64,000 nt of DNA. Source: Acidobacteriota bacterium (GTDB lineage: Bacteria > Acidobacteriota > UBA890 > WLXD01). The stretch lies in assembly GCA_963666055.2 (NCBI GenBank), contig CAXWPH010000015.1, positions 480,001 through 544,000 on the forward strand, read 5' to 3'. A model generated the notes under the pieces. The model did not search any database and was not told the DNA's origin. It saw only the letters and a list, made by a program, of their open reading frames with translations. This document shows positions 1,265 to 60,920 of the stretch, piece after piece (positions within the stretch are counted from its first letter, which is position 1; each line of letters starts with the position of its first letter). The translations under genes were made by a program, and so were the position numbers.

Positions 1265-1269
1265 TTCAG

Positions 1270-1321: not shown

Positions 1322-1423
1322 TGCGTCTGAGCCCGGCATCTAACAGGGATCTAACGATTGATTGTGATTGACCGTCCGTACATCCAGATCGGTCGGAAGA
1401 AGTCGGGCCTACGGTGCCGATCG

Positions 1424-2066: not shown

Positions 2067-2190
2067 TGACCTGCCCCCCAATAGTCGGGCCAGTTTGAGA
2101 GTTAGGATTTGAGGCTCTCAGGATGGCTCGGGAAGGGGGAACAATGGCCCGGAAGCGGTACACGGTAGAGCAGATCATCAGGGGAAGCTT
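2067..2190 (+). mobile_element. IS3-family (IS407-group-like) left end and start of orfA
   Basis: TG-initiated tgacctgccccccaatagtcgggccagtttgagagttag; ATG at 2144 gives MARKRYTVEQII, then breaks off. Confidence 0.7.
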
Positions 2191-4387: not shown

Positions 4388-4553
4388 GCCTCCCTGAACT
4401 ACCCCAACATCGCCACCATCTTCGGGTTCGAGGAGTCGGGCGGTGTTCGGTTCATCGCCATGGAGCTGGTGGAGGGTCAGAGTCTCGCCGAGCGCATTGA
4501 AGCTACCGGTCGCATCAAAGTAGATGAGGCACTGGAGATCGCCCGCCGGATCG
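4388..4553 (+). pseudogene. Internal Ser/Thr kinase fragment (ASLNYPNIATIFGFEE...LEIARRI)
   Basis: Near-identical at DNA level to 48226-48391. Confidence 0.9.
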
Positions 4554-4563
4554 ATGGAGCCCG

Positions 4564-41263: not shown

Positions 41264-41347
41264 GCCGAGGTGGCGGAATTGGCAGACGCGCCGGACTCAA
41301 AATCCGGTGGGCTTACGCTCGTGAGGGTTCGAGTCCCTCCCTCGGTA
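41264..41347 (+). tRNA. tRNA-Leu(CAA), island attachment site
   Basis: gccgaggtggcggaattggcagacgcgccggactCAAaatccgg...ggttcgagtccctccctcggta. Confidence 0.96.
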
Positions 41348-41381
41348 CTACTGAAAATAAAGGACTTAAACGACTCAAGGT

Positions 41382-42515
41382 TCAGCCCTTCGTGCCATCC
41401 GACGACGCCTTGGCACGGTTCTTGGCACGGTTTGGGTCGAAAGCGGCCACCTTCTCACGCACAGCAAGCGCCATCGCCGCGTGCTTCTCAGTGAGGTGCG
41501 TATAGCGGTCCGTCATCACACGGGTCTTGTGACGTAGCAGTGCTTGCACCAGCGCTCTTGGTGCTCCCCTGCCGATCAGGTCTGTCGCACCACCGTGCCG
41601 GAAGTCGTGCAGCCTGAGCTTGGCCGAGACGCCAGCATCATCCTTGATGCGCTTCCACGCCGCGTACATCGTCGACTCGTGCATCGGTTGTTCGCCGGTA
41701 TGGTTCGGAAACAACCACTCTGAGTCATGCGACTCCAGATGCTCCCGAAGCCTCTTTCGCAGCTGGAGACTCGCAGGCACAACCTGGTCATCACCCCCCT
41801 TCGTCGTAGGCAGGTAGATGAGTCCGCGCCGGACGCCCTCGCCGTCTTTCCAGTTCCAGTCGATGTGCTCGCGTCGAATCGTCCGAGCCTCCGACTTGGA
41901 CCGCAGCATCGCCTCCCAAAGCAGAAGCAAGAACGGCCCCATGTTCGGGTTCTTATCCGCCTCGCCGTGCTCGATCAGCGTTTCGGCTTCCTCCTGGTTG
42001 ACCGCGTACCACGCATCCGTGTTCTCGGGATAACGGGCCACGCCGGCACAAGGGTTTGCCTCGATGTGCCCTCGCGCATGTCTGAAAAGCCCGGAGAACG
42101 TCGCCAGTTGTCGATTGGACGTCGGGCCGGAGGTCTCCCTGAAAACCTCGCGCTTGAACCGCTGCACGTCTAGGAACTTCACGCGGTCGATGCGCCAGTC
42201 ACCGAATGCGGGCAGAATCCGTTTCCTCAGATTTCGGCGATGTGCGTTCAGCGTGCGCGGTGCCATCGTGCCGACGTCAACCAGGCGACTGCACTCGATG
42301 AGATAGTCGCGGGCGATGTCAGACACAGTGGGCACACGGTTCGGACCATAGTAATCACTGAAGGTGTCGCTCGCGATGGCGCGGCGCATCGCCGCCTCGT
42401 CCTCCTGTGCCTTCCACTTCGCGTCGCGCCAAGTTCCGTACGTGATGTGGCCCTGATGCTGGACGCGACTGCGATAGCGCATACCGCTCTTCGCCCGCCG
42501 CTTCAGGATGCCCAT
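41382..42515 (-). CDS. Tyrosine recombinase/phage integrase
   Basis: Catalytic R (MLRSKSE), K (TKGG), HDFRH, LLRH, RYTH; converges on the tRNA-Leu 3' end; ttggcacggtt direct repeat at ~41410-41432. Confidence 0.93.
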   Translation of the reverse strand: MGILKRRAKSGMRYRSRVQHQGHITYGTWRDAKWKAQEDEAAMRRAIASDTFSDYYGPNRVPTVSDIARDYLIECSRLVDVGTMAPRTLNAHRRNLRKRILPAFGDWRIDRVKFLDVQRFKREVFRETSGPTSNRQLATFSGLFRHARGHIEANPCAGVARYPENTDAWYAVNQEEAETLIEHGEADKNPNMGPFLLLLWEAMLRSKSEARTIRREHIDWNWKDGEGVRRGLIYLPTTKGGDDQVVPASLQLRKRLREHLESHDSEWLFPNHTGEQPMHESTMYAAWKRIKDDAGVSAKLRLHDFRHGGATDLIGRGAPRALVQALLRHKTRVMTDRYTHLTEKHAAMALAVREKVAAFDPNRAKNRAKASSDGTKG

Positions 42516-42736
42516 CGCCCCTCCCCTTTCCTCGGTCGGCGATCCCCACTCTCGAACCAGTCGCTAACCTCCGACAAGCGGTAACGTACGGTGCCGTTTC
42601 GCTTGTAGCACGGAATCCTACCGCGGCTCGCCCACACTTGGATCGTGCGAGGCGAGAGGCTCAGGAATTCCGCGACAGCCTCCGGGCCAACGAAGGGTTC
42701 CGGCGGGGAACTCGGAAGCCGGACGATTTCGCTCAT
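42503..42736 (-). CDS. Excisionase-like HTH protein
   Basis: EAVAEFLSLSPRTIQVWASRGRIPCYK..VRY; overlaps the integrase start. Confidence 0.85.
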   Translation of the reverse strand: MSEIVRLPSSPPEPFVGPEAVAEFLSLSPRTIQVWASRGRIPCYKRNGTVRYRLSEVSDWFESGDRRPRKGEGRWAS

Positions 42737-42839
42737 CGCATCGTGTCGGGGTGCAGGCTACCTGGAACATTCTCGGCCTGTGGGATGGTTGACCAACGTT
42801 GGTTGAGTTCGCTCATCCCCTAGAGACCATGGGCTGACC

Positions 42840-43447
42840 GGAGTCTCGAAGCCGAGCTGGTGTTGGATACAGAGGCTGAGGTGTGGCCAGAGTCGATCTC
42901 AGCGGACGGTGCGATGCTGCTGCTTGACAGCGGGGTCCCCCCGAATCGCGACGTGGGGATACTGGCTCTCGATACACAGGAGCCGAAAATCCTCGTCGCT
43001 ACCGCCGCCGATGAGGGTGACCCCAGTTTCTCGCCGGACGGTCGCTTCTTCGCCTTTCATTCGAACGAGACCGGGCGAAACGAGGTGTACGTGTGGGAGG
43101 TATCAAGCGGTCGGACATTTCCGGTCTCTACGAGTACCCGTGGTGGTTGGTTCCCTCGCTGGTCGCGGGATGGAAGGGAGATTTACTACCGCTCCCGGAA
43201 CAGCCCCGGCATCCTCGTTGCGGAAGTGGATTTGGAGTCGTTTTCCGCATCCGACCCTGTCGAACTCTCGGACATCGTCATGCGTGCCGAGACCAACTTC
43301 GATGTCACCGCCGATGGACAGAAGTTCCTGGTGACGGTGCCCGCTGGTAGTGATGAGACTGGGGGCACGGCATTCGGAACACGACTCAACGTGGTCCTCA
43401 ACTGGTTCGAGGAATTGAACCGGCTCGTGCCAACGGGCGGCTCCTGA
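42840..43447 (+). pseudogene. C-terminal TolB-propeller part of a Ser/Thr kinase family gene (3'-end copy 2)
   Basis: FSPDGRFFAFHSNETGRNEVYV, PRWSRDGREIYY, FDVTADGQKFL, VVLNWFEELNRLVPT*; no N-terminus. Confidence 0.88.
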
Positions 43448-43639
43448 TGGTCGGCAAGACGCTCGGTCACTACGAGATCCTGTCCCCGCTCGGCGCAGGC
43501 GGGATGGGGCAGGTGTACCGAGCACGCGACACGACGCTGGATCGTGATGTCGCCATCAAGGTGCTGCCGGAAGACTTCGCCAGCGATGCTAACCGGCTGG
43601 CCCGCTTCGAGCGTGAAGCGAAGGTACTTGCTTCGCTGA
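43447..43639 (+). pseudogene. Ser/Thr kinase N-terminal fragment
   Basis: MVGKTLGHYEI...REAKVLASL then breaks; TGATG coupling to the previous stop. Confidence 0.9.
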
Positions 43640-43706
43640 CCGGTGCGCCAGCCCGCGGATCTCCCATTGGACGCTCACCCGCCTTCGTTTGACCGATGGG
43701 ACTCTC

Positions 43707-44080
43707 TCAGAGATCGACTTTCTCCGACCATCGGGTGACATCGTCGTCGGTCAGCCCGAGATAATCGAGTGTCACCGACGGGTGCCGATGCCCGAGCTCG
43801 CGCTGCACAACGGCCAGCGGCGCGCCCTCGCGGTAAGCGTGGTATTCCCAACGTCTTCCTCAATGTGTGGGTAGACCATGTCCCGTCCGTCAGCCCCACA
43901 GCGGCGCAAGCGTCGCGGACGATGCGGTGAACTTGCTGGCGCGTCAGCGACTTTAGCTGCCCCTCCGCATCGTGCTCCCTCGACGGAAACAAGGGGGCTT
44001 CGAGGTCACGGCCAGCCGGATGCCCGCCGCGTCGCGGTCGCTCGCCGAGGTACAGGATCAGCGCCTCGCGACAGCCGCGC
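43707..44080 (-). pseudogene. Tyrosine recombinase C-terminal remnant (frameshifted)
   Basis: PLFPSR, STHTLRKT, then shifted frame VQRELGH..SVTLDYLG. Confidence 0.8.
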
Positions 44081-44193
44081 GGTGGCGAGCATGCGCGGAT
44101 CAGGGGGGAGTCCTGGATCGATGCCGGCACCCCTGGTACTGTCGCTGGCGAGCAGGGGGTGGGTCGATCTCGTCAAGACCGGGAGAGAGCGTC

Positions 44194-45348
44194 ATGTCCC
44201 GAACTGCCGCCTCGCGCCTGCTGTCGATCTTGCTGTTGTCGGGCCTGGTTCTGGTCGGCTCGGCTTCAGTCCACGGACCTTCCGTAGTCACGCCCAAGAA
44301 GGTCACGAGAATCGGCTACGTCGTCCACAGCGTCACCAAGACCGTGCAAGTCGTGGAGATTACCTGGAAGGGCAGGGCGGCCTCTCGCGCCGCGGCCAAC
44401 ATCAGCGCCAAGACGCTCGGTACCGTGACGGGCTTCAAGAACCCTGTGAGCGTCAGCGCCGCCCCGGATCTGGCGCTCGTCGTGGACGCCAAGCGCAAGC
44501 AGGTGGTTCGCATCGATCTTGCCGAGGTCAGGAAGGGCGGAGCACTGAACGTCCGGCGGCTGAGGGGCGAGACGCTCAAGACGGGCAAGGGCACCCGCTC
44601 CGTCGTCGTGAGCGGCGATGGGACGACCGGCCTGGTGCTGAAAGGAAAGCGCGACCTCCTGATGATCGACGTGCCGACGATGACGATCATTGGCAAGTTC
44701 AAGGTCGGCAAGGGCGCCGAGGTGGTCCGGGTTGATCAGCAAGGCACGGTGGCGATGACCGTCAACAAGAACAGCAGAAGCCTATCGCTGTTGGATATCG
44801 CCGCGGCGCGCGCATCGGTACGGAGCGGCTCGGCTGACGGCGTCGTGAACGTCCCTTTGCCGTGCGACCCAGGCGATGCCGGGGACGTTACGAGTTATGG
44901 TCCCTTCATCCACGCCGTCGGAAACTGCGTCTCCCAGACGGGCCGCTTGAACGAACAACTGTGGGACGGGTTCGGTATCGGGGTAGATCTCAAAATGCAT
45001 GATTTCCACGTCGACAATCTCCTCGGCCGAGTCAAGTCGGTCGCCACGTTGCGTGGTGAAAACTTTCCAGACGGCTTCATCGTCACGTCGTGCGGCGAGA
45101 GCTCGGAGTCGTGCGAGACAGACTTCGTCGACGTTTTCGGCTTCAACCAGGGGTTCATTGAGAATGGGTGTGTCACCGACGACCCTCAAGTTGTCGTCAG
45201 GTCCGACTCCCTCAGCATTTACGGGCTGCAGTGTTCCCAGGGCCCGACCGCCACCGCAGGCTGCGACGGTCCTGCTCTCGACATGATGATCTTCGCCGAC
45301 GGATTCGAGAGCGGCGACACGAGCGTCTGGTCGAGTAGCGATCCGTAG
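44194..45348 (+). CDS. Secreted YncE/beta-propeller-like protein with IFADGFE C-terminal motif
   Basis: Signal peptide, beta-rich repeats, ends IFADGFESGDTSVWSS. Confidence 0.7.
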   Translation: MSRTAASRLLSILLLSGLVLVGSASVHGPSVVTPKKVTRIGYVVHSVTKTVQVVEITWKGRAASRAAANISAKTLGTVTGFKNPVSVSAAPDLALVVDAKRKQVVRIDLAEVRKGGALNVRRLRGETLKTGKGTRSVVVSGDGTTGLVLKGKRDLLMIDVPTMTIIGKFKVGKGAEVVRVDQQGTVAMTVNKNSRSLSLLDIAAARASVRSGSADGVVNVPLPCDPGDAGDVTSYGPFIHAVGNCVSQTGRLNEQLWDGFGIGVDLKMHDFHVDNLLGRVKSVATLRGENFPDGFIVTSCGESSESCETDFVDVFGFNQGFIENGCVTDDPQVVVRSDSLSIYGLQCSQGPTATAGCDGPALDMMIFADGFESGDTSVWSSSDP

Positions 45349-45450
45349 CGTCGACGGTCGACGCTAGCGCCGGCAGGACTTCGGTCGGGTCCGTGGACTT
45401 CAGCAACGGCCGCACCGTGGTGGGCGCTGTAGCGGCGGCATTCCGGCGCT

Positions 45451-45580
45451 CTCCCATGGACCCTCATCCGTCCCAGCGATAGGCTTCTCGCGCTCACCCA
45501 CCCCTCTGGCAGCGCTATGGAACCCGGCACCAAACTAGGCCCCTACGAGATCACCGAGCAGCTCGGTGCAGGCGGCAGGG
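45451..45580 (+). repeat. Kinase 5' leader plus first ~21 codons, repeat of 1665-1797
   Basis: ctccc.tggaccctc...cagcgataggctt..gcgctcacc...atg.aacccggcaccaaactaggcccctacgagatcaccgagcagctcggtgc. Confidence 0.9.
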
Positions 45581-45599
45581 CAAATGTTCGTCTCGTCCG

Positions 45600-48032
45600 G
45601 TGCTACTCGCGATCCTCCTAACGGCGGGTTGCACGGGGCTTGACCCCGGCCCGGCGCCGCTGACCGCAGAAGTTCCCCTACACCTTGAGGAACATCTCGA
45701 CGTGGCCACCATCGTGGGCTCCGAGGTCCCCGCAGACGCTCCGACCGCCATGGAATGGCGCTTCGACGAGCCCCAGGAGGACTGGAAGCCTCTAGTCCCG
45801 TGGAACCCGACGATAGATCCGGTCGAGGTCACGCAGCTCGACGACGCGCTGCGAGTCACACTGACGGACGGCACGAGGAATCCTCGCGGCAGGCCTAGGG
45901 GCGGCCTGGTTTTCGAGGTGCCCGATTGGAACTACGAGGATCTGGCGAACCTCGTGGTGCGTGCTCGCACCTCCGATGACGTCAAGAACTTCCGGATCTT
46001 CTTCAATAGACGCGAGGGGACCGGTACGGGTACAAGCGGCCCCAATCCATTTGAGCACGGAGGCGATGGGGCCCCTGTTGTAAGTGACGGTACGGTGCAG
46101 ACCTACCGGGCGCGGCTGGATTTTTTCGGGGGGAATCCGCCACCTGAGGAATCGATTCGGCAGATTGCCCTGTGGTTCAATCCCAGCGATCTGGCCAGCA
46201 TCGACATCCTTTCCATCACGCTAACCACGAAGGTGGCTAACTACGCCGACGCGGGCACGGCCTCGCGCACGGAAATCCGCAACCGGATCTATCGGCAGGC
46301 TCTGTATACGCACACGCCGGGGCGCGTGGAGTATCGGGTGAAGATCCCGGAAGGTGGTCGGCTCGACTTCGCCATAGGTGTCCTGCGGGAGGACGTGCCC
46401 GTGACCTTCCGGGTTACGGCGATCCTTGATGGTACTGAGGGTGGTGAACCGACCGCGCTGTTCGAGGAGCACTATGCGGACAAGGAGGCCTGGGGCCAGC
46501 GTTCGGTGGATCTGGCCGACTTTGCGGGCCAGACGGTGACGCTCGGCTTGGAGGCCGATTCCGAAGCCGAAGGGAGGGTCGCTTTGTGGGGAGCGCCGAC
46601 CGTGACGGGCGGCGGCCAGTCGGTTCTTCCCAACGTCGTCTTCTACGTCTTCGACGGCGGTGCGGCGGACTACATGAGCGTTTACGGCTACAACCGTCGC
46701 ACGACCCCGACCCTGGAGCGGCTGGCCCAGGAGGGCGTCGTGTTCGAGCGAGCCTACAGCAATTCCTCCTTTACCCTGCCCTCGACGGCCTCGTTCATGA
46801 CTTCCCTACATACGAGTGTGACGGGGGGCTTGCCTGGCCCATACATCAACCCTGTGCCTGCCGAAGCCGTGACCATGGCCGAGCACCTGCACCGGGCCGG
46901 CTACCAGACCGCGGTGTTCACGGGGAACCCCAATGCCGGGACTTTGAGCGATCTCCAGCGCGGCGTCGATCTGTTCCGGGAGGACTGGGAGGACTTCTCC
47001 TACTTCGGTGGGAATAATCACAAGGAGTCCTCGAAGTACCTCCACGAGGGATTCTGGAGCTGGCGGGAGGACTATCCCAGGCAGCCGTTCTGGGCGCACT
47101 TCCAGACTACTGACACGCACGAGGACTTTCCGGCTCCGCCACCCTTTGGCGGGCTCTTTGTCACAGCGGATGAGTGGGAGAGCGTGAACGAGTCGTTTGA
47201 GCGCCTGATGGAGTCTGGCGGGCCTGGTCCCTATTCTCCCGCCTGGGATTCTACGGGGATCAGCCGGACGGCGGTCTACTCGGTGGCTAAGGGCCTGTAC
47301 GACGAAGCGATGGCTCACAACGACTATCGGCTCGGGCAACTCATCGACCGGCTGAAGGCTGAAGGGGAGTGGGAGAATACGCTGTTGATCATCGGGGGCG
47401 ATCACAGCATCCGGGCGGCCCTCAACGACCTGGGCCTCATCCTCAACGACTCGCTGCCTCCCCGATGGAGCCAGCCGATGTTCCGGCCCACGATCTCCAG
47501 GGTGCCCCTCATGTTCGTCTGGCCGGGTCACATCGAGGGGGGACAGCGAATAGCCCCTCCGGTATCGATGATCGACGTGCTCCCCACCCTGCTCGACCTT
47601 GTGGGGCTCCCCCCTGCCGAGATCGCACAGGGGCAGTCGCTGGCTCCTCTGATGTTGGGTCGAGAGGGATGGGAGCCACGACCGGTGATTCTCGACGAGT
47701 TCGATCTCGATTTCACGACGGGGGAGCTATCGGGCTGGATCGAGGTGGTGGACGGCCGCTGGGGTGCTTCGCTGGAGATCAACCCTTATTCAAGCCAGCC
47801 GCCCGAAGAACCCCGTCCCGTCCCGCTGCTGCTCTACGACCTCTGGAACGATCCGATGGCGCTGTGGAGCGTGCACGAGGAACGGCCCGACCTCGTCCAG
47901 AAGTACACCGCCTTCTTGGAAGAGCAGTTCGAGGCCCACCTGGCCCTGTCGCAGTACTTCACGCCATCGGGCGAGGTCGAGCTGACCCCGGAGCAGCTAC
48001 GTTCACTTCGGGCGCTTGGCTACATCCAGTGA
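45600..48032 (+). CDS. Sulfatase-like hydrolase (Ser-type), lipoprotein
   Basis: Lipobox TAGC, PNVVFYVFD, TLPSTASFMTS, GDH, VSMIDVLPT, LRALGYIQ. Confidence 0.85.
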   Translation: MLLAILLTAGCTGLDPGPAPLTAEVPLHLEEHLDVATIVGSEVPADAPTAMEWRFDEPQEDWKPLVPWNPTIDPVEVTQLDDALRVTLTDGTRNPRGRPRGGLVFEVPDWNYEDLANLVVRARTSDDVKNFRIFFNRREGTGTGTSGPNPFEHGGDGAPVVSDGTVQTYRARLDFFGGNPPPEESIRQIALWFNPSDLASIDILSITLTTKVANYADAGTASRTEIRNRIYRQALYTHTPGRVEYRVKIPEGGRLDFAIGVLREDVPVTFRVTAILDGTEGGEPTALFEEHYADKEAWGQRSVDLADFAGQTVTLGLEADSEAEGRVALWGAPTVTGGGQSVLPNVVFYVFDGGAADYMSVYGYNRRTTPTLERLAQEGVVFERAYSNSSFTLPSTASFMTSLHTSVTGGLPGPYINPVPAEAVTMAEHLHRAGYQTAVFTGNPNAGTLSDLQRGVDLFREDWEDFSYFGGNNHKESSKYLHEGFWSWREDYPRQPFWAHFQTTDTHEDFPAPPPFGGLFVTADEWESVNESFERLMESGGPGPYSPAWDSTGISRTAVYSVAKGLYDEAMAHNDYRLGQLIDRLKAEGEWENTLLIIGGDHSIRAALNDLGLILNDSLPPRWSQPMFRPTISRVPLMFVWPGHIEGGQRIAPPVSMIDVLPTLLDLVGLPPAEIAQGQSLAPLMLGREGWEPRPVILDEFDLDFTTGELSGWIEVVDGRWGASLEINPYSSQPPEEPRPVPLLLYDLWNDPMALWSVHEERPDLVQKYTAFLEEQFEAHLALSQYFTPSGEVELTPEQLRSLRALGYIQ

Positions 48033-48042
48033 GTTCAAGAGG

Positions 48043-49220
48043 ATGATCGGCAACAAACTCGGCCCCTACGAGATCACCGCCCCGCTTGGTGAAGGCGGGA
48101 TGGGACAGGTGTACCGAGCCCACGACACGACGCTGGATCGTGATGTCGCCATCAAGGTGCTGCCGGAGGACTTCTCCGACGATGCCAACCGGCTGGCTCG
48201 ATTCGAGCGTGAAGCCAAGCTGCTTGCCTCGCTGAACCACCCCAACATCGCCACCATCTTTGGCTTTGAGGAATCTGACGGTGTGCGTTTCATCGCCATG
48301 GAACTGGTGGAGGGTCAGAGTCTCGCCGAGCGCATTGAAGCCTCCGGTCGCATTGAGGTTGATGAAGCGCTAGAGATCGCTCGTCGGATCGCGTTGGCGT
48401 TGGAGGCCGCTCACGAAGCCGGCGTCATCCATCGCGACTTGAAGCCGGCCAACGTGCAGGTCGCCCCCGATGGCACGGTCAAGGTGCTCGATTTCGGGCT
48501 GGCTAAAGCCTACGAGGCGGAAGGCAGCGATCCATCGTCCGACCTGAGCCACTCGCCCACGATGATGGCCGCCACGGGCACCGGCGTGATCATGGGTACG
48601 GCTCCCTACATGAGCCCCGAGCAGGCGCGAGGCAAGCCGGTCGACAAGCGAAGCGACATCTGGTCGTTCGGCTGTGTGCTGTACGAGATGCTGGCCGGCA
48701 AGCGAGCCTTCGACGGCGAGACCGTCAGCGACACGATGGCGGCGATTATCAGGGCGGAGCCGGACTGGGGCGCTGTGCCAGAAGCCACCCCGGCCATCGT
48801 TCGACACGTGATGCGCCGCTGCTTGGAGAAAGACCCGCAGCGCCGTTTACGCGATGTCGGCGATGCTCGGATCGAGCTCGAAGACACTCAAGCTCAGCCG
48901 CCGGGAGACCTGGTTCCTCAGGCCGCGACGAAGGGACGGCAAATCCCTGCGGTCGTACCCTGGGCTTTGGCCATCCTACTGGCAGTAGCGACTCTAGTCC
49001 TGCTCGTGTGGCAACAGCGTCTGACGGAGCCAAACGTACCCGTTCGCCGCTTTGCGATCGAGCTCCCCTGGCACGCGGTACCCAATTGGATCGATTTCAT
49101 CACCGCACTCTCGCCGCAAGGAACCCATATCGCCTACAACGGTCGCGTCCACAACCAGGTCGACGTTTACGTCCGAGCGCTGGATAGCCTCGAAGCCCAA
49201 CCGCTGGCCGACGCGCGCGG
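48043..49220 (+). pseudogene. Ser/Thr kinase with complete catalytic domain and TM, truncated at the start of the propeller
   Basis: HRDLKPAN, DFGLAK, GTAPYMSPEQ, TM, LSPQGTHIAY; ends at the junction with the ankyrin gene. Confidence 0.9.
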
Positions 49221-49919
49221 ACCGGCGCGCTCAAGTATCAGCTCGTCCTCGTTCACGCTCGGGAGCAGCGTCAGAACCTGCCCCGACCTGCTGCGATAGA
49301 TGCCCATCAACAGCTTGAGCCGCGCCGGTGATCTCGGCGAGTCGAGAGGTCCTGGCGCTTTCGCGCCCGCCTTGATCAGGACGTCGGCCAACTCGTTCTG
49401 CTGTGCGCGCCTCGCCGCGTCCAGTGCCAGATTCAAATATGACGGGTCGACCCCACCCCGGCCGACGATCGTCTTCACCGCGTCGGTATGGCGAGCGCGA
49501 ATCAGCGCCACCAGGGACTCCCCCTCCGTTCCCGCGCCCTTTGCCACGAGCAGCTTCACGACTTCAGCCGCGGCTTGCTTTGCCTTCGGGTCGCTGCCGG
49601 GCCGGCTGGCGAGCCACAACGGCGTCCTGCCGAACTCCAGATCTTTCGCGTTCGGGTTGGCGCCTCGCTCGAGGAGCAGCCTCACCATCTCGACGTTGTA
49701 CCGATCGGCCGCCGTGCAGAGCGCTGTTAGGCCGTGGTCGTTCTCGGCATTGACGTCCACGCCACTGGCCAGTAGCGCCGCGACGGTTTCGATGTCTCCC
49801 TTCCCCGCCGCGGCGTGGAGCTCCGCTTGGCCGACGCGCGACTGCGTGTCGGGGCGAGCGATGAGCAGCGCAACGAGTACCGTCTCGATCAACCAGCGCC
49901 GGCGAGACACGTTCCTCAT
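49220..49919 (-). CDS. Ankyrin-repeat protein, C-terminally truncated at the kinase junction
   Basis: LHAAAGKG, GLTAL, LLERGANPN, GRTPL. Confidence 0.8.
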
Positions 49920-49930
49920 ATCGAGTCTTG

Positions 49931-50438
49931 TTATGGCTGCCTGTCGTACACTCTGACTTGCTCTTCCGTTCGGCCCTGGCGATCCGTAATCTTCGCGCGA
50001 TAGGTGAAGTTCTTGCCGTCGGCCGACACGCTCAAGGACCCGTTGAAATAGATCTGCCCGTCCCGTTTGCCCGTGAGCTCGATGATCTCACCGGCTTGCT
50101 TCAGCGAAATCGAGCCGATGGTTTCCCCTCCCGTCGCTCTCGAGAACTCCGGCGAGAACTCGCCATCCAATAAGGCGGCCCAGTGACTGAAGGTGTGGTT
50201 TTCCCTGTGCGGTCACCCTCTGGATCGTGCTGAGGATCATTCCCTGGTTCGAGTAATCGAACGTCCGTATCTCGCTCTTCGGCGACCGACCGGGATCGTA
50301 TCTGGACTTCTCGACGTTCAGGATCCAGGTACCGATGAGCGGATTCGGGGCCTGCGCTGAAAACTCGAGACCACCAACCGCAGCGGCCAGGAAAGCGATC
50401 AGCAAGATGAAGCTGTAGCTGCGAGAACGGCAATGCAT
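49931..50438 (-). CDS. Secreted hypothetical protein (lipocalin-like), frameshift near 50190
   Basis: Signal peptide, GTWILNVEKS, SVSADGK..VYDRQ across two frames. Confidence 0.7.
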
Positions 50439-50552
50439 AGAGTCCTCCCCGTATGTTCTCGGGACCCCGACGCGCGTCGGGCGATAACTATACACCTGCT
50501 CCGCATCGCCGGATTTCTTCGTCGCATTGTCCTTTCAGCTCCCAATCCCCGT

Positions 50553-50679
50553 CTGGGCGCGGACGGCCGACTACTGGCCCTCGTTCGCCAACCGCGAGGT
50601 GATCTACAGGTAAACGTCACTCTCAACTGGGGAGAGGAGCTGAAGCGGCTCGTGCCCACGGACCCGTAGCGTCCCGGCT
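50553..50679 (+). repeat. Kinase-family 3'-end remnant, copy 3
   Basis: ADGRLLAL...VNVTLNWGEELKRLVPTDP*. Confidence 0.88.
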
Positions 50680-51450
50680 GGTACTCGGTCGCTCCACGAT
50701 GTCGGGCTCGAGGCGGAGATCTCAGGTTTTCGGGCCGGGCGGGAACTCAGCATTTCTCAACATGCGCGCCCCCTGCTAGGTGTGCGCTTTGAACGGTTGC
50801 CGGGTACGCCACAGAAGCGCCGCTAGTAGCCTCTGCACTCACCGTGTACGGTCACCAGGGCACAATAGCCCATCCGCTCAGCCGCCTTTCTGCGGCGTCT
50901 CAGGGCTTCGGTGTATCGCCCGAAAATGTCTACATTTGTCAACAGGCGGTGCCGATCGGGATGTCATCATTTGTCATCATTCCGGAGCCGGTAGGCTGTT
51001 CGCTGCCGAGCGCCCCGAATACCAAACAGTTGCCAACAGGCGTCCACGGCGTGGGTAGATCTCGGCGCGTAATCGCGTATTGCCACTCGCTACTGAAAGC
51101 CCCTTTTTGTAGGTGTCAAATTTGACGAATTAGATGAGCCTCGCGCGCGCGTAGGCTTGTGAACAATCGTGAACATCGCCTTACGGTTTCGCCTCCTTTC
51201 TTAGGCGACGCTGCCTTCGCCAACCCCGAGGTCTATTCGTTCCTCGAATGACAGGCGATAGCCATCGTTTGCGCGGCGAATCCCTTGAGAGGGCTGTGAA
51301 TCTGTGCTCAAATCCTGGCGTCGTGGCGTTGTCCAACGCGAGGAGCGTGGCTGGGCAAGGCTATCTGGGAAATCTCGGGTCAAGTCGTTCAGCGCGCATG
51401 ACGGCGGCGCTGTGGAAAGCATGAATGTAGCCCATCAAACGGGAGGAGAG

Positions 51451-52788
51451 ATGGACAAACACGCGATCAATCGACGGGCCTTTCTTGCAACCTCGGCAGC
51501 GACCACAGCAGGCATGCTCACCTCTGGCACGGTGATCGCGGGTCCGAGCGGTGGGTTCACCCCCCACAAGGTGGCGCCCGGGGCCGCCATCGGTGCCCAT
51601 CCGCCACCACCGTTCTCGAAGGCAGAGTACCAGGAGCGGTTGCGCCGAGTTCGACAGCGGATGGCGCAGGACAACATCGACATGCTGTTCGTCACCATGC
51701 CCGAGGACATGTGTTATCTGCACGGTCTGGAGCTCAATTGGTTCCAACAGAACGGGCCCAAAGCCTGGGGCATGAACTCGATCACGGCGGTCCACGTCGA
51801 CCACGACACGCTCATCCACTTCGACAACCATGATGACCTGATGGCGGCGACCTCCGTGGCCAAGGACATTCGACGGGCCCGGCGCGGAGGCGAGAAGCCA
51901 TACGAAGGTCACGCCATGGAGCTGGAGGCTGCCGGCTGGCTCAACGGCACCGTCGGCCTGCAGTACTACAGCTATCGCCCCAACCCGGCGCGCATGAAGC
52001 AGGTCGAGGCGGTGTTCAGCGATCGTGGTTGCGAGCTCATCGATGCCTCGGACGTCATGGCCGAGGTCAAGCTGCACAAGTCGCCAGCGGAAATCGAGGT
52101 GATGGTTGAGGCGGGCCGCATCTGCGACATCGGCCTGCAGGCGATCGCTGAGAACCTACGGCCGGGTGTGACGGAGCTCGAGGTCTACGGTGAGATGGTG
52201 CGCGCGATGACGCGGGCCGGCGGTGGGGTCTCGGGTCTGTTCAGCTCGATCAAGGTAGGGAGCGGTTCCTTCATCCACGGCATCGCGTCAACCCGGGTGA
52301 TCCAGCAGGGCGATCACGTCATTTGCGACATCTGCGGCGTCAAGAACCGCTACCACAGCAACACGTCGCGTGGATTCTTCGTCGGCGAGCCCCCGAAGGA
52401 GCTCGCAGATCTTTACGAGATGAACGGCCGGGCGATGCACGTTGTGCGCGATACCGCCAGGGCCGGCCTGCCGCTGAACGAACTCACCCGGACGTTGCGG
52501 GAGTTCTACAAGGAGACCGGTGCCTGGCAGCTGCAAGAACAGGGCAAGATCGGTGGCTGGACGGGCGGGTATGAGCTCGGGATCAGCTTCCCGCCGGACT
52601 GGGTTGGCTGGTGGGTGTTCAACGTCACCGACGAGGATAATTCGGACTGGATTCTCCAAGAGCGCCAGGTGAGCAACTATGAGAGCTTCGCAACTCGGAG
52701 CACGGCGCTGATCGACACCTTCATCTTCGAGAAGAACCGGTGCCACCGGCTCTCGATGATGGCGCCGGAGCTCATCGTCGTCGCCTGA
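51451..52788 (+). CDS. M24 family (Xaa-Pro/creatinase-like) peptidase with Tat signal
   Basis: GGAGG RBS, NRRAFL, KSPAEI, RPGVTELEV, CDIC..YHSN. Confidence 0.85.
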   Translation: MDKHAINRRAFLATSAATTAGMLTSGTVIAGPSGGFTPHKVAPGAAIGAHPPPPFSKAEYQERLRRVRQRMAQDNIDMLFVTMPEDMCYLHGLELNWFQQNGPKAWGMNSITAVHVDHDTLIHFDNHDDLMAATSVAKDIRRARRGGEKPYEGHAMELEAAGWLNGTVGLQYYSYRPNPARMKQVEAVFSDRGCELIDASDVMAEVKLHKSPAEIEVMVEAGRICDIGLQAIAENLRPGVTELEVYGEMVRAMTRAGGGVSGLFSSIKVGSGSFIHGIASTRVIQQGDHVICDICGVKNRYHSNTSRGFFVGEPPKELADLYEMNGRAMHVVRDTARAGLPLNELTRTLREFYKETGAWQLQEQGKIGGWTGGYELGISFPPDWVGWWVFNVTDEDNSDWILQERQVSNYESFATRSTALIDTFIFEKNRCHRLSMMAPELIVVA

Positions 52789-53265
52789 CGCGAGACCACC
52801 GGCGAAAAGGGCGAGGGAGGTCTTACAAGCGGCCGTAGGCTCGTCCCGGCTCATGTCAATTTGAAAACGGGGACAAGCGAATGCCGCAACGAATCTCTCG
52901 TCGACTCTCTACCTGCCTCGTAGCCGCTCTGCTCGCGGGCGTGCCGCCGCTGCAGGCGCAGATCCCGGAGCCCGATCAGGCGGGCGTCGGAATGGACCAT
53001 CTGCACCTAGGTGTGCCCTGCAGTGTGCTCCATGGGGTCTGCGCCTTCCATGGGGTCGCCATTCGCCGCGGCGACCCTCGCGCGCGAGTGAGGTAGGGTC
53101 CTACTTCGGTCTCCTCGTTGGTGTCTGGCGGCGTCAGCAACCTGAGGTTTATGAGGTTCTGATGGCCCCCGGCAATGTCAGGTTTTGGTGCCGCACCGGC
53201 TCTTCGGGGTGAAGGTTGGATGCCTCAGCCTTTCGGAGCCGGAAACTGTCCCCACCCACCGTCGG

Positions 53266-53326
53266 TTCTCAACTGGTTCGACGAGCTGAAGCGGCTCGTC
53301 CCGACGGACCCGTAGCGCGCTCAGCC
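53266..53326 (+). repeat. Kinase-family 3'-end remnant, copy 4
   Basis: ttctcaactggttcgacgagctgaagcggctcgtcccgacggacccgtagcgcgctcagcc. Confidence 0.9.
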
Positions 53327-53450
53327 GCCCCTCGCGAGCCACCTAGCGACCTTCGATTCCGCTCGTCCGCAATGCCAGGACAGGCGCCAGTCATATGTCT
53401 GCTTAGGAGCCCCGAGAAGGCCCCGCTACGGGCCGCCGGCAGCCTCTACG

Positions 53451-54563
53451 TCACGCCCCCCAGACCTGTTCGTAGACGCGCAGCCAATTGCCGCCGAGGA
53501 ACTTCTGGATATGCCACTCTGGCCAGCCGCGACGCTCGAGTGCTCGGATCACGTTGGGGAGCTCGCTGATGTTCTCGAAGCCCTTGACGAAGCGCCGCGG
53601 CCCCTCGTCCATGGCGTCCGCTCCAAAGAGCACGCGGTCCCTGATCGGTGACCGTCCCCAGGTGAAGTCGGGGCCGAGCCCGACGTGGTCAACGCCGACC
53701 AGATCGCGAATGTACTCGGCGTGCTCGAGCATCTCATCAACCGTTACCCACGGGCTCTCCGCCAGGTGGGCCATCTCCTTGCCGCGCACGACGTAGTCGT
53801 TGATCGCCACCACACCGATCACGCCCCCCGTCCCAGCGATCGCCTCGATGACCTCGTCGCCGAGGTTGCGGGTGCTGTTTGCGATGCCGCGCACGTTGCC
53901 GTGGCTGCAAATGATGGGGACGCCGGAGGACATCTGGATGGCATCGAGGCTCGTCCGATCGCCGGTGTGGCCGCCGACGTCGAGGACGATCCGCAGCTTA
54001 TGGATCTCCTCGATCAGCTGCCGTCCCGCACGGCTCAACCCGATGTGCCCATCGATGGCGCCGGCACCGAAGGCGTTGGCGATTTGGTAGGCGATGCCGC
54101 AGATGCGCAGCCCCAGCTCGTAGTAACTGCGCAGGTTGGTGCGCGGTGGGTCGCTCCACCAGTCGTTCTCGTCGCTGCGCCCACCGCTCAGCACATTCGC
54201 CGACTGCCACCCAAACAACAGGCCCAGCTTCCCCTGCCGATGCACCTCACGGATCTCGCCGACCGAGCGCACCACCTGAATCCTGTCGCCGTGCTCGTCG
54301 ATGAAGTTGTAGACGTCGGAGAAGCTCTGCCGGGCGCCCCCCACGCTCTTGTGCCAGCAGGTAACCCCACCGGCCTCGAGCATCCCGAGGTATTCCTCCG
54401 TCAGGTTCGAGGGATCGAGGCCGTTGACGACGAGGGTCGATTGAGCCGGCGGCCGCCGCTGGGCGTCGACGCCGGCCTCGGCAGCCCAGGCGGGCGCGCC
54501 GCGACTCAATCCCGTCGTTGCGCCGACCACCGCGGCACCTGTCAAGAAGCCTCGTCGATTCAT
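53451..54563 (-). CDS. Membrane dipeptidase (M19) with Tat signal
   Basis: NRRGFL, ICSHGN, RNLGDE, HVGLGPDF, LGGNWLRV. Confidence 0.9.
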   Translation of the reverse strand: MNRRGFLTGAAVVGATTGLSRGAPAWAAEAGVDAQRRPPAQSTLVVNGLDPSNLTEEYLGMLEAGGVTCWHKSVGGARQSFSDVYNFIDEHGDRIQVVRSVGEIREVHRQGKLGLLFGWQSANVLSGGRSDENDWWSDPPRTNLRSYYELGLRICGIAYQIANAFGAGAIDGHIGLSRAGRQLIEEIHKLRIVLDVGGHTGDRTSLDAIQMSSGVPIICSHGNVRGIANSTRNLGDEVIEAIAGTGGVIGVVAINDYVVRGKEMAHLAESPWVTVDEMLEHAEYIRDLVGVDHVGLGPDFTWGRSPIRDRVLFGADAMDEGPRRFVKGFENISELPNVIRALERRGWPEWHIQKFLGGNWLRVYEQVWGA

Positions 54564-54967
54564 AGCGCATGCTCTCCTTCAGTGTTATCCGGCCCCGCCC
54601 TTGCCTATGATGCAGGCTGGGATACAGTCTGCAGCTTGCTCCGGTCTCCGGCGGCCCGTCTCGGACCAGAGTCCCTGGAGTGTCAAGCCGGGATTTGCCA
54701 GATGAGTGGTGTCCGGCCACGCGACCGGCTTCGGCCAATGGCAACAGGCTGATATCCAAGCATAGACCCGCGGTTTGCTCCAGGGATTCAATGCGCAAGT
54801 GATGGCTTCCGCCCATCATGACAATCCCTTGTTGTCCTTGCAGTTACGGGACCTGTGACTACCTGTTTGCATAGAACGCTGGCGTGACTGCTTACGCATC
54901 GGTACCGTTCGGGGAACCTTGTCCGTCATCCCGGCACCCACAGCGGCGGCGAGCAGAGCCGCCGAAT

Positions 54968-55102
54968 CCTGGGCGACGGTCAGCAGTTCGTGATGTTCCC
55001 CGACACCGGCCAGAGAAGCCAGACTGACACGGTGTCGCTGATCCTCAACTGGTTCGACGAGCTGAAGCGGCTCGTGCCGACGGACCAGTAGTGTCGTCAG
55101 CC
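54968..55102 (+). repeat. Kinase-family 3'-end remnant, copy 5
   Basis: DGQQFVMF...SLILNWFDELKRLVPTDQ*, then tgtcgtcagcc. Confidence 0.9.
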
Positions 55103-55569
55103 GACTCTCCGCGAGTTCCTGCACGCTGCTGCCCCGCTACCTCTCCCGGTGCTCCACTCCAGCCACCTCAGTAGCCTCCAGAAGCAACGCTAGCTGCTGC
55201 TCTGGGATCGCCTTCCGTGTCATGGCGAGATTCACCATCGTCGGCGAGCGTGCGGATGTTGCACTGCCGCAGGGCTGAGGACGTCTCCAGCCAGATGCCG
55301 TCGAGGTGGGCTATCTGGGTGCTGGGGGTGAGCTTTCATGCGCCGGAGGGTAGCTCAGGAAGGCGGTTCGATCTGTAAGACAAGCGCTGGCGAGTGAGCG
55401 ACGACGCGATGGTGTGGCTGCCGGATCGCAAGGTGACGGTGTAATGGCCCGCGCGCGACGGAGCATCCGAGCATGGCGGAGGTCCACTGCTGGGTGACGG
55501 GACAACATGAGCCCCGATGGCCCCACCCCACCGACACGGGCGCCCGATATCAGAGCGCCATTGTCCGCA

Positions 55570-55845
55570 TCACGAGCCCGCGGAATGCTCCCCAGGATCC
55601 ACCTCGACACCTGCCCCACGTGCCGCCGAGTGATCGCCCCAGTTGGCCTGCGAAGCAAACGTATCCGTGTCCAGCGACATACTGGCGTTGCGCTCGAGAT
55701 ATGAGCGCACATCGCTTTCGCGATAGCGCAATTGCCCGCGAACGCGGACAAACGGCAACCGGCCCTCCTTGCGCTCGCGACGGATCGTCCGCGGCGAGAC
55801 CTGGAGCAGCTCTGCGAGCGTCTCGGTGGTGTACAGCTGCTGCAC
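55570..55845 (-). CDS. Excisionase-like HTH protein (orphan)
   Basis: LYTTETLAELLQVSPRTIRR..GRLPFVRV..QLRY. Confidence 0.75.
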   Translation of the reverse strand: MQQLYTTETLAELLQVSPRTIRRERKEGRLPFVRVRGQLRYRESDVRSYLERNASMSLDTDTFASQANWGDHSAARGAGVEVDPGEHSAGS

Positions 55846-56299
55846 GGTTGCGTACTCCCATGTTGGCGGAGTTCGGTAGGTGCCGAGACGAATTCGACAC
55901 CCGAGGAGTGTGCAACCGCCGTGCCAAACTCGGGCGCGTGCCCCGCGAGGCGACTGGACGCAGTACGCTTCGCCACCATAACTCACTACAACAAAAGGGG
56001 TTATCGAATACTTCCCGACCCGCTACAAGCCTCTGTCCGGCCAGCTTGGGCCACCCAGGTGCTGGTAGCGTCTCCCCCGTCCGCCCGTGCATTACGCTGA
56101 TCGAAACTGGCCTTTGCACCGTAACCCACTGATATCAAAAGCTTTATCGTCTCACCTACAAAACGTGTAGAAACTCCTACACGCTACGGGGGGATCGTCG
56201 ATGCCAGGTGGGGACGCCACCAGACAGGCGGGTACTCTCGCGAACAAGCATGGCCCACAACGGCCCCCGTCGCGGGGAATCTGAGCGAGATGCTCGCAG

Positions 56300-56408
56300 C
56301 TACCGTCTGCCACCGCACCGACTCGATCGCGAACGGCAATATATTGCTACGGTTATATGTTGCCATTACCACCGACACGCGCGGTGACCGCGGATTAGCC
56401 TGAGCCAT
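56300..56408 (-). pseudogene. Glycosyltransferase family 2 N-terminal fragment
   Basis: PRVSVVMATYNRSNILPFAIESVRWQT then breaks. Confidence 0.8.
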
Positions 56409-56426
56409 GAGGATCGAGGCGAGTTG

Positions 56427-56473
56427 GAGCAGCTGAAGCGGCTCGTGCCGACGGACCCGTAGCGTCCTCAGCC
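56427..56473 (+). repeat. Kinase-family 3'-end remnant, copy 6
   Basis: gagcagctgaagcggctcgtgccgacggacccgtagcgtcctcagcc. Confidence 0.9.
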
Positions 56474-56609
56474 GGTTGCTGGAGTATCGCTGACATCGTT
56501 CATCGCCAGCTCGGTCCGTGGTCTCTGTAAACAGGCGCTATCGGTCGGTTAGCGAGTCGCTTTCGCCACGTAAGGCGCACGGATAGCCGCCTGCGTGCTT
56601 CGGGGACGG

Positions 56610-56657
56610 ATCTTCGGGTTCGAGGAATCTGACGATGTGCGCTTCATCGCCATGGAG
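56610..56657 (+). repeat. Internal kinase fragment (IFGFEESDDVRFIAME)
   Basis: Near-identical to 48256-48303 and 4418-4465. Confidence 0.88.
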
Positions 56658-56784
56658 TCAGCATCTTTACCTCCAGGGCTGGCGATGGCTCAATGTTTGC
56701 GAGCGTTTCCGTTCGACTACGGAACCACGAGCTTGCCAAGCACACCCCCGTTGAAATCGCCCCGGCGGGCAACGAGGAACAAGT

Positions 56785-57546
56785 ATGTGCCAGCCTTCCA
56801 CCGTCGATGTCATCTACGTCAACCCCGGTATCTTTGCGTTTATGTATTTGTTCGGTCTGCCCGCGATCGTGCACTTTGGCATGCTCGTTGGGCCATGGGG
56901 TGACGGGCTCAACGCGCCGCCCTCCAGCGAAGACATTGGCAGTGTGGCGGCAGGAGTGCTCGCTGATCCCTCTCCTCACATTGGCAAGCGTTACCGTCCG
57001 ACGGGACCGAAGCTCATATCGCCGCACGACGTGGCCGACGTTCTCACCGACGTAGTCGGTCGCAAGGTCAAGTACCAGGACGTGTCCACCAAGATGTTTC
57101 TCAAGGCAGCGAAGGCGCAGGGTGTCTCAGACTTCGAGATCGGCCATATTGGTGCCTACTTCGAGGAGCTTCGTGGTGGCACGTATGCGGTCGGCGCGCC
57201 GACCGATCACGTTCAAGAGGTCTTGGGCAGGCCACCGGAGTCTTTCGAGACGGCTGCTCGACGATACATCGCCCAGCCTGATCTGATCGCACCTGGTCTG
57301 CGCGTAGGCACGAAGCTCGAGGCTCTTGCCTTCATGGTTAAGATGATGCTGACTCGCGCGCCGGATCCGGAGCGCTGGGCGCGGGAGCGCGGTCATCCGA
57401 TATTGCGGGAAGCGCTGCTTGCCCACGACAGTCGTAACTGGCGCGAAGCGGCAGAGCAGAAGGACCTTCTCCTGCTGCCCACTTCCCATGTTCGAGTACA
57501 GCAAGTTTCATACCCGGAAGAACTGATAAAGACAGCTCAATGGTAA
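56785..57546 (+). pseudogene. NmrA-like NAD(P)-binding protein lacking its N-terminus
   Basis: NAPPSSEDIGSVAA, YRPTGP, VGRKVKY; no GxxG Rossmann start. Confidence 0.7.
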
Positions 57547-57563
57547 GCAAGGAGACCCCTTCA

Positions 57564-57640
57564 ATGTCCGACCTCGATACCTTGTACGACCGAAATGAGG
57601 AATTCCCCCGCACGTTTGACCAGGGCGATCTCCCCATTTG
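57564..57640 (+). pseudogene. Possible beta-carbonic anhydrase N-terminal fragment
   Basis: AAGGAG RBS, MSDLDTLYDRNEEFPRTFDQGDLPI then stop; resemblance from memory only. Confidence 0.4.
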
Positions 57641-57798
57641 GCTGAAGGAGATTTCGGACAGCCCCATGCGCTGCCGGTAGGCGCTTGCTGGGCGCCATCT
57701 TGGGGGACTTGTTAGCGAGTGGTCGAGGTAGCGGTCCCTGCTTCGGTCCACGTCGCGAGGATCTCATTGGCCCAACTTTGCCCTCCAACGCCAGCATG

Positions 57799-57840
57799 CG
57801 GCACAAGCCGCTTCAGCTCGTCGAACCAGTTGAAGATCAG
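57799..57840 (-). repeat. Kinase-family 3'-end remnant, copy 7 (inverted)
   Basis: Reverse complement ctgatcttcaactggttcgacgagctgaagcggcttgtgccg = LIFNWFDELKRLVP. Confidence 0.88.
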
Positions 57841-58119
57841 CGCACCTGACCCATGCGCCTGCACCTGGATGCCCTGCGCGCAACTCCGCGGGGCGGCTAA
57901 CCCACGTCGCGACCTGCAGGCGCTTCCTCGCCGTCCGGCCCACCCTCCTCTAGCGCCGCTCGGTGGAGGGAACCTAAGTGATACCGTGCCGCCGCCCAGG
58001 TCATCTCCCAGCACGTCAGGACGCGCTTGCCGAGCTCCGGCCACGCGCGACCCGTAGTGCTCTCCGGCTCGAAACTAACTGTCGAGCCCGCGGGCCTGAA
58101 AACTGTAACGTAACGAGCA

Positions 58120-60741: not shown

Positions 60742-60920
60742 TCGGCGATGGCCCCAGTAACGAGCTGAATGGTTCCGCTTTTGGTTCCACATTTCCCCAG
60801 GTAATCGCTGCCGCTAGCAAGAATCACCAACGATCACGGGTCACGGCGGTCACTTCTCGGGCGGTACGTGGTTGGCTCGAGCGGGTCGGTGTCAAACAAC
60901 TTGAACAGGAGCTTGGAATC

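Follow-up and report, generated by a model that had tools for sequence, protein, structure and literature searches.

The DNA analysed here, referred to as the window, is a stretch of 64,000 nucleotides (nt) from an uncultured Acidobacteriota bacterium, positions 480001-544000 of contig C15 of the source genome G000 (5.73 Mb, 15 contigs, 95.7% complete). It contains a genomic island in which unrelated cargo genes are separated by pieces of one Ser/Thr kinase gene family, and cargo blocks shared between such islands were found to stop preferentially at the ends of these kinase genes. The island begins with a tRNA-Leu gene, an integrase, an excisionase-like helix-turn-helix (HTH) gene, the 3' third of a kinase gene, a kinase head, a propeller-like gene, a leader with head and a sulfatase gene; it continues with kinase codons 1-392, an ankyrin gene, a tail, an M24 peptidase, a tail, an M19 peptidase, a tail and an HTH gene, and ends with a GT2 piece, a tail, an internal kinase piece, an NmrA piece, an inverted tail and a DUF5916 block with a terminal kinase remnant (Table 1). 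A leader is a predicted sigma70 promoter followed by the kinase 5' end; a tail is the last 45 nt of a gene of the kinase-transmembrane (TM)-PD40 type.

A preliminary description of this DNA, made from its letters, had listed six kinase 3' ends and four 5' or internal pieces in the island, and all ten were recovered. The 3' ends at 43397, 50622, 53268, 55044 and 56415 (partial) form a direct-repeat family and the one at 57799 is inverted; the other pieces comprise 65 codons at 43447, ~20 codons with a leader at 45518, codons 1-392 at 48043 and 49 nt at 56609. Kinase pieces at 1022, 1733 and 4388, on the tRNA-Asp side, were also found where they had been reported. A faint piece described near 62628 was reduced to a weak match of 28 nt at 62650-62676 (E 3e-4 against 21 genes). 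As stated there, no intact member of the family occurs across 41-60 kb of the window, and the core at 8950-41260 contains neither leader nor tail, the only kinase in it being a distant TPR-type one (66-70% DNA identity). Features that had gone unlisted are the conserved promoter leader (45449 and 1662), the remnant of a kinase C-terminus at 60738-60769 and, at 1222 and 1424, 3' fragments of tRNAs.

Intact members of the family are kinase-TM-PD40 proteins of 875-921 amino acids (aa). The catalytic motifs VAIK, HRDLKPxN, DFG and xPE were found in 21/21 listed kinase genes, a TM helix at 299-322 in 12/15 reference kinases, and the PD40 propeller was recognized by Pfam. By their predicted products, the intact members are Hanks-type Ser/Thr kinases.

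A profile search of G000 yielded 91 leaders and 98 tails, and none of either in the reversed genome. Positions 29538-42541 and 53958-66961 of contig C8 form a 13-kb inverted duplication (99.9% identical, up to the contig end) that is probably an assembly mirror, and the half beyond 53,900 was excluded from the counts as a probable assembly duplicate. The remaining 88 leaders and 94 tails fall into 39 clusters, compared with a mean of 99 and a minimum of 86 clusters in 200 random placements. Full open frames running from kinase start to tail, as defined by a strict pattern, numbered 13; these are the intact genes to be set against the leaders and tails, and three congeneric genomes give a like picture.

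The leader reads TGGACC or TTGGAT, 17 nt and TAGGCT, with conservation beginning 3 nt 5' of the first hexamer. Its spacer measures 17 nt in 144/146 copies in which both boxes were found (162 copies have the -10 box), and a leader-like layout was present in 14/51 tRNA upstream regions of this genome vs 0.95% of random windows. The tail consists of 45 near-invariant nt and a looser 25-nt extension. The remnants are bimodal in length: <150 nt of the gene are kept by 54/94 tails and 52/88 leaders, and at least 2400 nt by 22 and 20, respectively, short pieces of the divergent kinase middle being hard to detect.

Neighbouring pieces lie on the same strand in 119/129 cases in G000 and in 54/56, 18/19 and 24/27 in congeners. 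Cargo is in the sense direction after a leader in 83/105 cases, compared with 906/1375 adjacent cargo pairs (p 0.002) and 57/103 cases after tails. As read from the sequence, the leader would give the adjacent cargo a predicted promoter.

Leader and post-stop tail DNA was present in 4/4 congeneric genomes (G001-G004; longest core DNA matches to G000 ~81-94% identical). In the phylum, the kinase-family C-terminus was matched in 38/121 sampled genomes, a tally that includes the unpublished G046, on which nothing stated here depends. These matches lay in frames of <300 aa in 21/39 cases in G012, 15/34 in G007, 6/9 in G005 and 0/7 in G011, some of them being frameshifts and not truncations. An exact 38-nt tail stretch had five occurrences in a species-level genome collection, all in one Acidobacteriota record; this is duplicate congener DNA and was not counted.

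Contigs derived from the reads of public runs X1, X2 and X4 (two studies, one of which may be the source sample) match 43596-45533, 48846-51690, 53409-55065 and 57382-58503 with 0-1 differences. They span the junctions at 43640 (truncated head), 45449 (leader), ~49200 (truncation), 50622 (tail) and 54968 (remnant), and that of the inverted tail; contigs of runs X3, X5 and X7 likewise match the window across junctions. The joins at 42831 and just 5' of 53268 had <31 letters on one side and were not counted. That the pattern results from misassembly of a metagenome bin through the kinase repeats can practically be dismissed: the C8 mirror and duplicated tRNA loci in G000 would favour it, yet the run contigs refute it for the bridged junctions and the same architecture occurs in G001-G004. 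The duplicated loci are tRNA-Lys-Glu-Thr (C7:18709-19226 and C10:20561-21078) and tRNA-SeC (C6:1-8030 and C13:58156-66188); together with a 2.5-kb tandem triplication (C2:900-8574) they may be either strain haplotypes or recent duplications. Differences in contig depth between parts of the island, seen in run X2, were dropped when X3 and X5, from the same sample, failed to reproduce them.

End points of shared cargo blocks

The islands of G000 (1,259,710 bp) were compared with DNA of G002 (620,000 bp), G003 (315,721 bp) and G004 (460,000 bp). From 1614 alignments of at least 300 nt, 529 were kept for breakpoint counts as low-copy and mostly non-kinase; blocks with a median depth >4 (insertion-sequence-like) and blocks >50% kinase were excluded. 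A block, whether shared between genomes or within one, that reaches a given piece either ends there or runs through, and the outcomes were counted at identities of at least 88%, 94% and 97%.

Blocks reaching a tail ended there in 24/27, 19/21 and 9/10 cases at the three stringencies, and those reaching a leader in 13/15, 6/6 and 2/2. The control frequencies were 195/337, 72/158 and 27/78 for ordinary stop codons and 118/283, 48/147 and 27/79 for start codons; at tRNA fragments, 8/10, 4/4 and 2/2 blocks ended. Fisher tests of tails against controls gave p ~1e-3, 1e-4 and 1e-3, values that overstate the significance because the pairs are non-independent. In the sequences compared, shared cargo blocks end preferentially at kinase ends, and the suggestion of the preliminary description that the kinase family acts as a recombination scaffold is borne out to this extent. 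Since shared blocks that reach kinase ends stop there in about nine cases out of ten, these ends are likely crossover points for ordinary homologous recombination.

Individual loci illustrate the exchange of flanks. At a tail at C8:38001, the upstream DNA is shared with one locus and the downstream DNA with three others. A 4.9-kb block ending at window position 1095 is 99.4% identical in G002, with a tRNA-Leu fragment at its start in both genomes; past its tail, G000 has an arm with a tRNA-Met 3' fragment, and G002 a different arm with a tRNA-Leu 3' fragment. A unit of leader, head and sulfatase occurs five times, beginning at the leader with differing upstream DNA and followed by a kinase head or tail. 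The DUF5916 block has a 99.96% identical second copy at C15:793372-791076, which continues into a full tail. The tRNA-Leu islands of the four genomes have hardly any content in common at corresponding positions; they are mosaics whose blocks match other G000 islands at 90-99% identity. Among pairs sharing one non-kinase flank, homology did not resume on the other side, within up to 15 kb, in 41/56. Homology ends at varied positions in and around the tail, from within the core to +26 nt.

The full-length genes were examined for exchange in 71/78 pairs of the 13 intact genes, those with propellers <45% identical. Four-fold third positions agree at 297/391 (0.76) in the tail and at 2685/7718 (0.35) in the propeller, the expectation from codon usage being ~0.33; the agreement is 0.59 in the first 30 codons and 0.45 in the kinase domain. 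Intact genes whose first ~650 nt are ~90% identical continue into C-terminal halves that are 28-35% identical or unrelated, and one gene pair is 88% identical over 640 nt, after which one member carries PD40 and the other TPR. Seen at the DNA level, full-length kinases are chimeric, and the tail is homogenised at silent sites.

These data bear on the view that the pieces are the pseudogene residue of decaying tandem kinase arrays, with ends conspicuous as their most conserved parts and no role in movement. Tandem A-B kinase pairs and tail-leader joins do occur, many members are frameshifted, other expanded families (sulfatase, M24, DUF5916) leave fragments too, short remnants of the divergent middle would go undetected, and most block ends lie elsewhere. 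Decay does not predict that tails and leaders halt blocks at about twice the frequency of matched gene ends, nor the reciprocal reassortment of flanks, nor a silent-site identity of 0.76 among genes with 35% identical bodies, and we regard it as unlikely.

In a separate observation on the sulfatase genes, the same sulfatase 3' end stands directly before a kinase start at 48000-48060 of the window and at five other G000 loci.

tRNA sites and tests for a site-specific system

Attachment (att)-like tRNA sequences were mapped within 450 nt of the kinase ends; this count omits a tRNA-Met called by ARAGORN at C15:475945, where a tail remnant overlaps it. Near 170 leaders such sequences lay upstream in 18 cases and downstream in one, and near 171 tails downstream in 19 and upstream in none. 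Relative to leader...tail brackets, 37 were outside and one inside, and at least seven tRNA types were represented. G000 contains 51 tRNA or transfer-messenger RNA fragments and 29 tyrosine-recombinase matches, and its integrases mostly adjoin tRNAs or tRNA fragments.

This arrangement could mean that leaders and tails are passengers of non-autonomous tRNA-integrating elements, lying just inside the att arms, with integrases moving the blocks and end-proximal deletions stopping homology. Besides the position of att sequences and integrases, two loci fit such a view: in G012 a tail remnant is part of a 1-2 kb tRNA-adjacent module that occurs three times at 99% identity, once beside tRNA-Val and once beside each of two tRNA-Thr genes, and in G003 (C33:493-535 kb) tRNA-Leu 3' fragments follow each other at intervals of 0.6-12 kb, nine of them within 37 kb, forming a dense array of additive tRNA cassettes. 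An att sequence lies within 450 nt of only 19/171 tails and 18/170 leaders, however, most of the tail and leader block ends counted above have none within several kb, the blocks end in the tail and not in an att core, and the arm beyond one and the same block is Leu-type in G002 and Met-type in G000. This reading, which would also leave unexplained how tails came to be homogenised at silent sites and heads chimeric, is rather improbable.

The island of the window is not closed by a second att copy: the tRNA-Leu(CAA) 3' end did not recur in the 79 kb after its integrase. A block in G002 is closed by one. The preliminary description had placed the array next to an intact integrase; that integrase is of the tRNA type and has a likely excisionase, and the pattern of kinase pieces is genus- and genome-wide and not specific to it. 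Named relatives of the window integrase were sought and none was confirmed. A mechanosensitive-channel gene (window 39805-41013) lies just upstream of tRNA-Leu in G000 and G002, and between two tails inside the G003 island, so that it may itself be moved cargo.

Integrons consist of the integrase IntI, the attI site, attC sites that recombine as single-strand hairpins with RYYYAAC/GTTRRRY cores, and the promoter Pc. A likeness of function to them, proposed in the preliminary description, stands: the islands are arrays of unrelated, repeat-separated and co-oriented cargo units of 1-5 kb in which a predicted promoter adjoins an integration site. As a candidate promoter for the cassettes, the leader has a -35/17/-10 layout, and the cargo after it is biased towards the sense strand. 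The machinery differs. None of 23 matches in G000 to the integron-integrase profile TIGR02249 exceeded the cut-off, the window integrase scoring 33.6 vs 265 bits. Six tail strands folded no better than their shuffles (z -1.75 to +1.11), the tail consensus lacks a GTTRRRY core, the Rfam search gave tRNA as the only match and none for the tail, and neither a terminator (scan of 45300-45700) nor a fold (tail folding) was found at kinase ends. Unlike in integrons, many promoters are predicted and cargo lies on either strand. With no IntI, no attC fold and no fixed crossover position, a true integron was rejected. The best integron-integrase score in G000 belongs to a broken 105-codon piece with one stop at C10:50422-50736 (149 bits).

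A site-specific recombinase might nevertheless use the tail, and the leader, as att- or attC-like sites in an integron-like or gene-targeting system. The sharp 45-nt near-invariant core with its silent-site conservation, the strict co-orientation, the cassette sizes and the number of tyrosine-recombinase matches agree with that idea. Against it stand, besides the results for IntI and folding, the variable ends of homology and the continuous remnant lengths, and at none of 28 mapped integrase places was a tail found as att site in tRNA-type geometry; we consider such a recombinase quite improbable.

Proposed mechanism and related systems

Our preferred explanation, which we hold to be probable, is that kinase 5' and 3' ends are crossover anchors for RecA-type homologous recombination and not sites of a dedicated recombinase, the island of the window being one of ~39 tRNA-anchored clusters. 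Beyond the breakpoint excess, the homogenisation and the polarity described above, which are observed, we infer the enzymes, direction, DNA vehicle and any selective benefit in the following scheme. tRNA-targeting tyrosine integrases would first bring in elements with kinase genes and so found islands. An illegitimate join would then swap the kinase middle for other DNA, leaving promoter with head, and tail; this may happen by deletion or, with a kinase end as the anchor, by homology-facilitated illegitimate recombination (at three kinase-deletion junctions, no clear microhomology was found). The captured DNA would then carry homology that is portable, shared with ~180 sites in each genome and with sites in congeners, and crossovers in heads and tails could move cargo, exchange its att arm or fit a new sensor with a kinase head. 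In a last step, the leader would supply a promoter to adjacent cargo. Entry of DNA by transformation or as integrase-excised circles is plausible. In favour of the preferred explanation, RecA was found in 4/5 and ComEC and DprA in 5/5 of the congeneric genomes (n=5).

Several observations weigh against this explanation. Besides their non-independence, the pairs come from few places: tail ends fall into ~14 clusters and the flank-sharing comparison covers 9+9. The DNA of G002, G003 and G004 was selected around motif hits. Several flank changes are deletions ending in a tail, and homology resumes in 15/56. A kinase piece is present in both partners at only 45/860, 30/328 and 12/151 block ends at the three stringencies, and in either partner at 112, 59 and 24 (13-18% of all block ends), with 79-85% at neither kinase pieces nor att sites; most block ends being elsewhere, the island system is fluid in general, and kinase pieces are hotspots within it and not its sole engine. 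Relative to cargo-gene ends, att sequences are enriched by a factor of only 2-3 (11% vs 5% and 3%). Stretches of 45-70 nt with mismatches are short for RecA, with MutS in 5/5 of the congeneric genomes and RecT in 1/5. The loci compared included no clean empty and filled pair (X-tail-Y and X-tail-cargo-tail-Y). In the run contigs no circle was seen, unitigs breaking at the 45-nt repeats and joints being short-sided or matching other copies. A strict E. coli promoter and terminator scan of 45300-45700 returned 0 promoters and 0 terminators; the leader fails that consensus, and its promoter is therefore only predicted.

More tentatively, and in our opinion with less than even chances, the units "att arm - promoter - kinase head ... 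kinase tail - att arm" may form a selected, integrase-independent gene-capture layer. The ends would be kept and homogenised because captured DNA gets expressed, hops among ~180 docking sites, changes its tRNA-integrase specificity and crosses species. If so, the same exchanges also generate new receptor kinases.

In the open-access literature, subscription journals and supplements aside, no account was found of cargo being delimited by the ends of kinase genes. Analogous systems are known nevertheless, contrary to the preliminary description, which knew of nothing comparable; what follows refers to the parts of the cited reports drawn on here. In the T4-type phages RB49 and phi1, PeSL cassettes are promoter-bearing repeats between unrelated small genes, with varying crossovers (PMC2839356; PMC4122927). 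Their authors also draw the comparison with integrons and show mini-circles, and identify no dedicated recombinase (PMC2839356). The kinase islands resemble them in having promoter-bearing repeats (promoters here predicted) between unrelated genes in variable regions, with breakpoints enriched in repeats. PeSLs are non-coding promoter and stem-loop elements of phages, whereas here the repeats are coding kinase 5' and 3' ends on bacterial chromosomes, nested inside tRNA att arms.

Orphan modules of Rhs/CDI systems and the immunity arrays of the Vibrio cholerae type VI secretion system (T6SS) are built by homology-facilitated illegitimate recombination (PMC5361080). As in the kinase islands, a conserved coding stretch anchors incoming DNA, displaces the variable part, leaves strings of remnants and places heads on new C-termini. 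Those arrays concern toxin tips and immunity genes at few loci, whereas here the cargo is unrelated (hydrolases, ankyrin, HTH), both gene ends take part and ~39 clusters are involved. Additive tRNA islands, such as tycheposons (bioRxiv 10.1101/2020.12.28.424599) and the tRNA cassettes of Actinomarinales (PMC7771536), have tRNA-targeting tyrosine integrases, partial-tRNA repeats and accretion of cargo cassettes in common with the present islands. Those descriptions mention no second layer like the one here, in which repeats made of coding-gene ends exchange cargo and att arms. Expansion of Hanks-type Ser/Thr kinase paralogs with a kinase-TM-extracytoplasmic sensor layout has been described for Acidobacteria (PMC3174227); the paralogs of that report are intact and under purifying selection, and the word pseudogene is absent from its main text, unlike the fragments dealt with here.

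The present system would then work like the T4 PeSL cassettes and the anchor-driven Rhs/T6SS arrays, on top of additive tRNA islands, and not like an integron. A promoter with a 5' coding end is reportedly also the portable, chimera-making module in the terminal reassortment of type III effectors attributed to Stavrinides in 2006; there it carries secretion signals, unlike the kinase heads here, which moreover have a 3' partner repeat.

In our judgement this is a real, genus-wide form of repeat-mediated cassette shuffling, and the interpretation in the preliminary description is partly supported. It would give an uncultured Acidobacteriota lineage a concrete, countable route for remodelling ~1/5 of the genome, with a signalling-gene family as portable homology and portable promoter, and extend such shuffling from phage PeSLs to chromosomes and coding DNA. 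It would account for the loss of islands from short-read bins of these bacteria, and makes testable the long-standing question of how islands exchange parts after integrase decay.

Features of the window

The positions of the features are collected in Table 1. Among the cargo named in the preliminary description, the sulfatase, ankyrin, M24, M19 and HTH_17 assignments were reproduced by Pfam, and the NmrA and propeller assignments had weak matches; the 56184..56408 piece we take to be GT2 from its motif SVVMATYNR.

Table 1. Features of the tRNA-Leu island and the tRNA-Asp side (window coordinates).
Feature	Position	Strand	Remarks
Tail	1022..1095	+	end of 4.9-kb block
tRNA-Met and tRNA-Thr 3' fragments	1222..1474	+	att-like; tail on one side, leader on other
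Leader and type-A kinase	1662..2074	+	first 114 codons
Internal kinase piece	4388..4553	+	166 nt
tRNA-Leu(CAA)	41264..41348	+	island anchor
Tyrosine integrase	41382..42515	-	377 aa; SAM_3 and Phage_integrase (Pfam)
HTH_17 protein	42518..42745	-	likely excisionase (Pfam)
Type-A kinase-TM-PD40, 3' part	42831..43447	+	~codons 699-902; GGS-type tail coupled to next start (TGATG)
Type-B kinase, truncated	43447..43641	+	first 65 codons
Propeller-like secreted protein	44194..45348	+	cargo; weak family matches only
Leader	45449..45517	+	predicted sigma70 promoter (TGGACC-17-TAGGCT) and ribosome-proximal sequence
Type-A kinase, truncated	45518..45576	+	first ~20 codons
Sulfatase	45600..48032	+	cargo (Pfam)
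Type-B kinase	48043..49200	+	codons 1-392 (complete kinase domain and TM), truncated within propeller
Ankyrin-repeat protein	49167..49919	-	cargo (Pfam)
Orphan tail	50622..50690	+	
M24 peptidase	51304..52788	+	cargo (Pfam)
Orphan tail	53268..53451	+	with ~135 nt post-stop sequence common to many copies
M19 dipeptidase	53451..54563	-	cargo; Tat signal (Pfam)
Kinase gene, last 40 codons	54968..55115	+	with tail
HTH_17 protein	55570..55845	-	cargo
GT2 glycosyltransferase, presumed N-terminal piece	56184..56408	-	cargo remnant
Partial orphan tail	56423..56477	+	
Internal kinase piece	56609..56658	+	49 nt; up to 96% identical to intact genes
NmrA-like piece	56755..57546	+	cargo remnant; weak match (E 0.0015)
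Inverted tail remnant	57799..57851	-	
DUF5916 block	58474..60769	+	last 32 nt (60738-60769) kinase C-terminal remnant

Repeats of 100-300 nt, non-coding or remnant, lie 3' of tails at 53315-53451, 55091-55348 and 56486-56612; they are common to many island loci and may offer further points of crossover. Near tRNA fragments, at 41410-41435, 1120-1145 and 60771-60800, lie short direct repeats in pairs which, judged by sequence, may be integrase arm-binding sites. A second excisionase-like HTH region at 55626-56265, with no adjoining integrase, is 82% identical to C9:55503-56120 of G000. On the other side of the window, a pyrroloquinoline quinone (PQQ) dehydrogenase gene at 6388-8780, split across two frames, adjoins tRNA-Asp, and positions 4562-4664 repeat 8393-8495.

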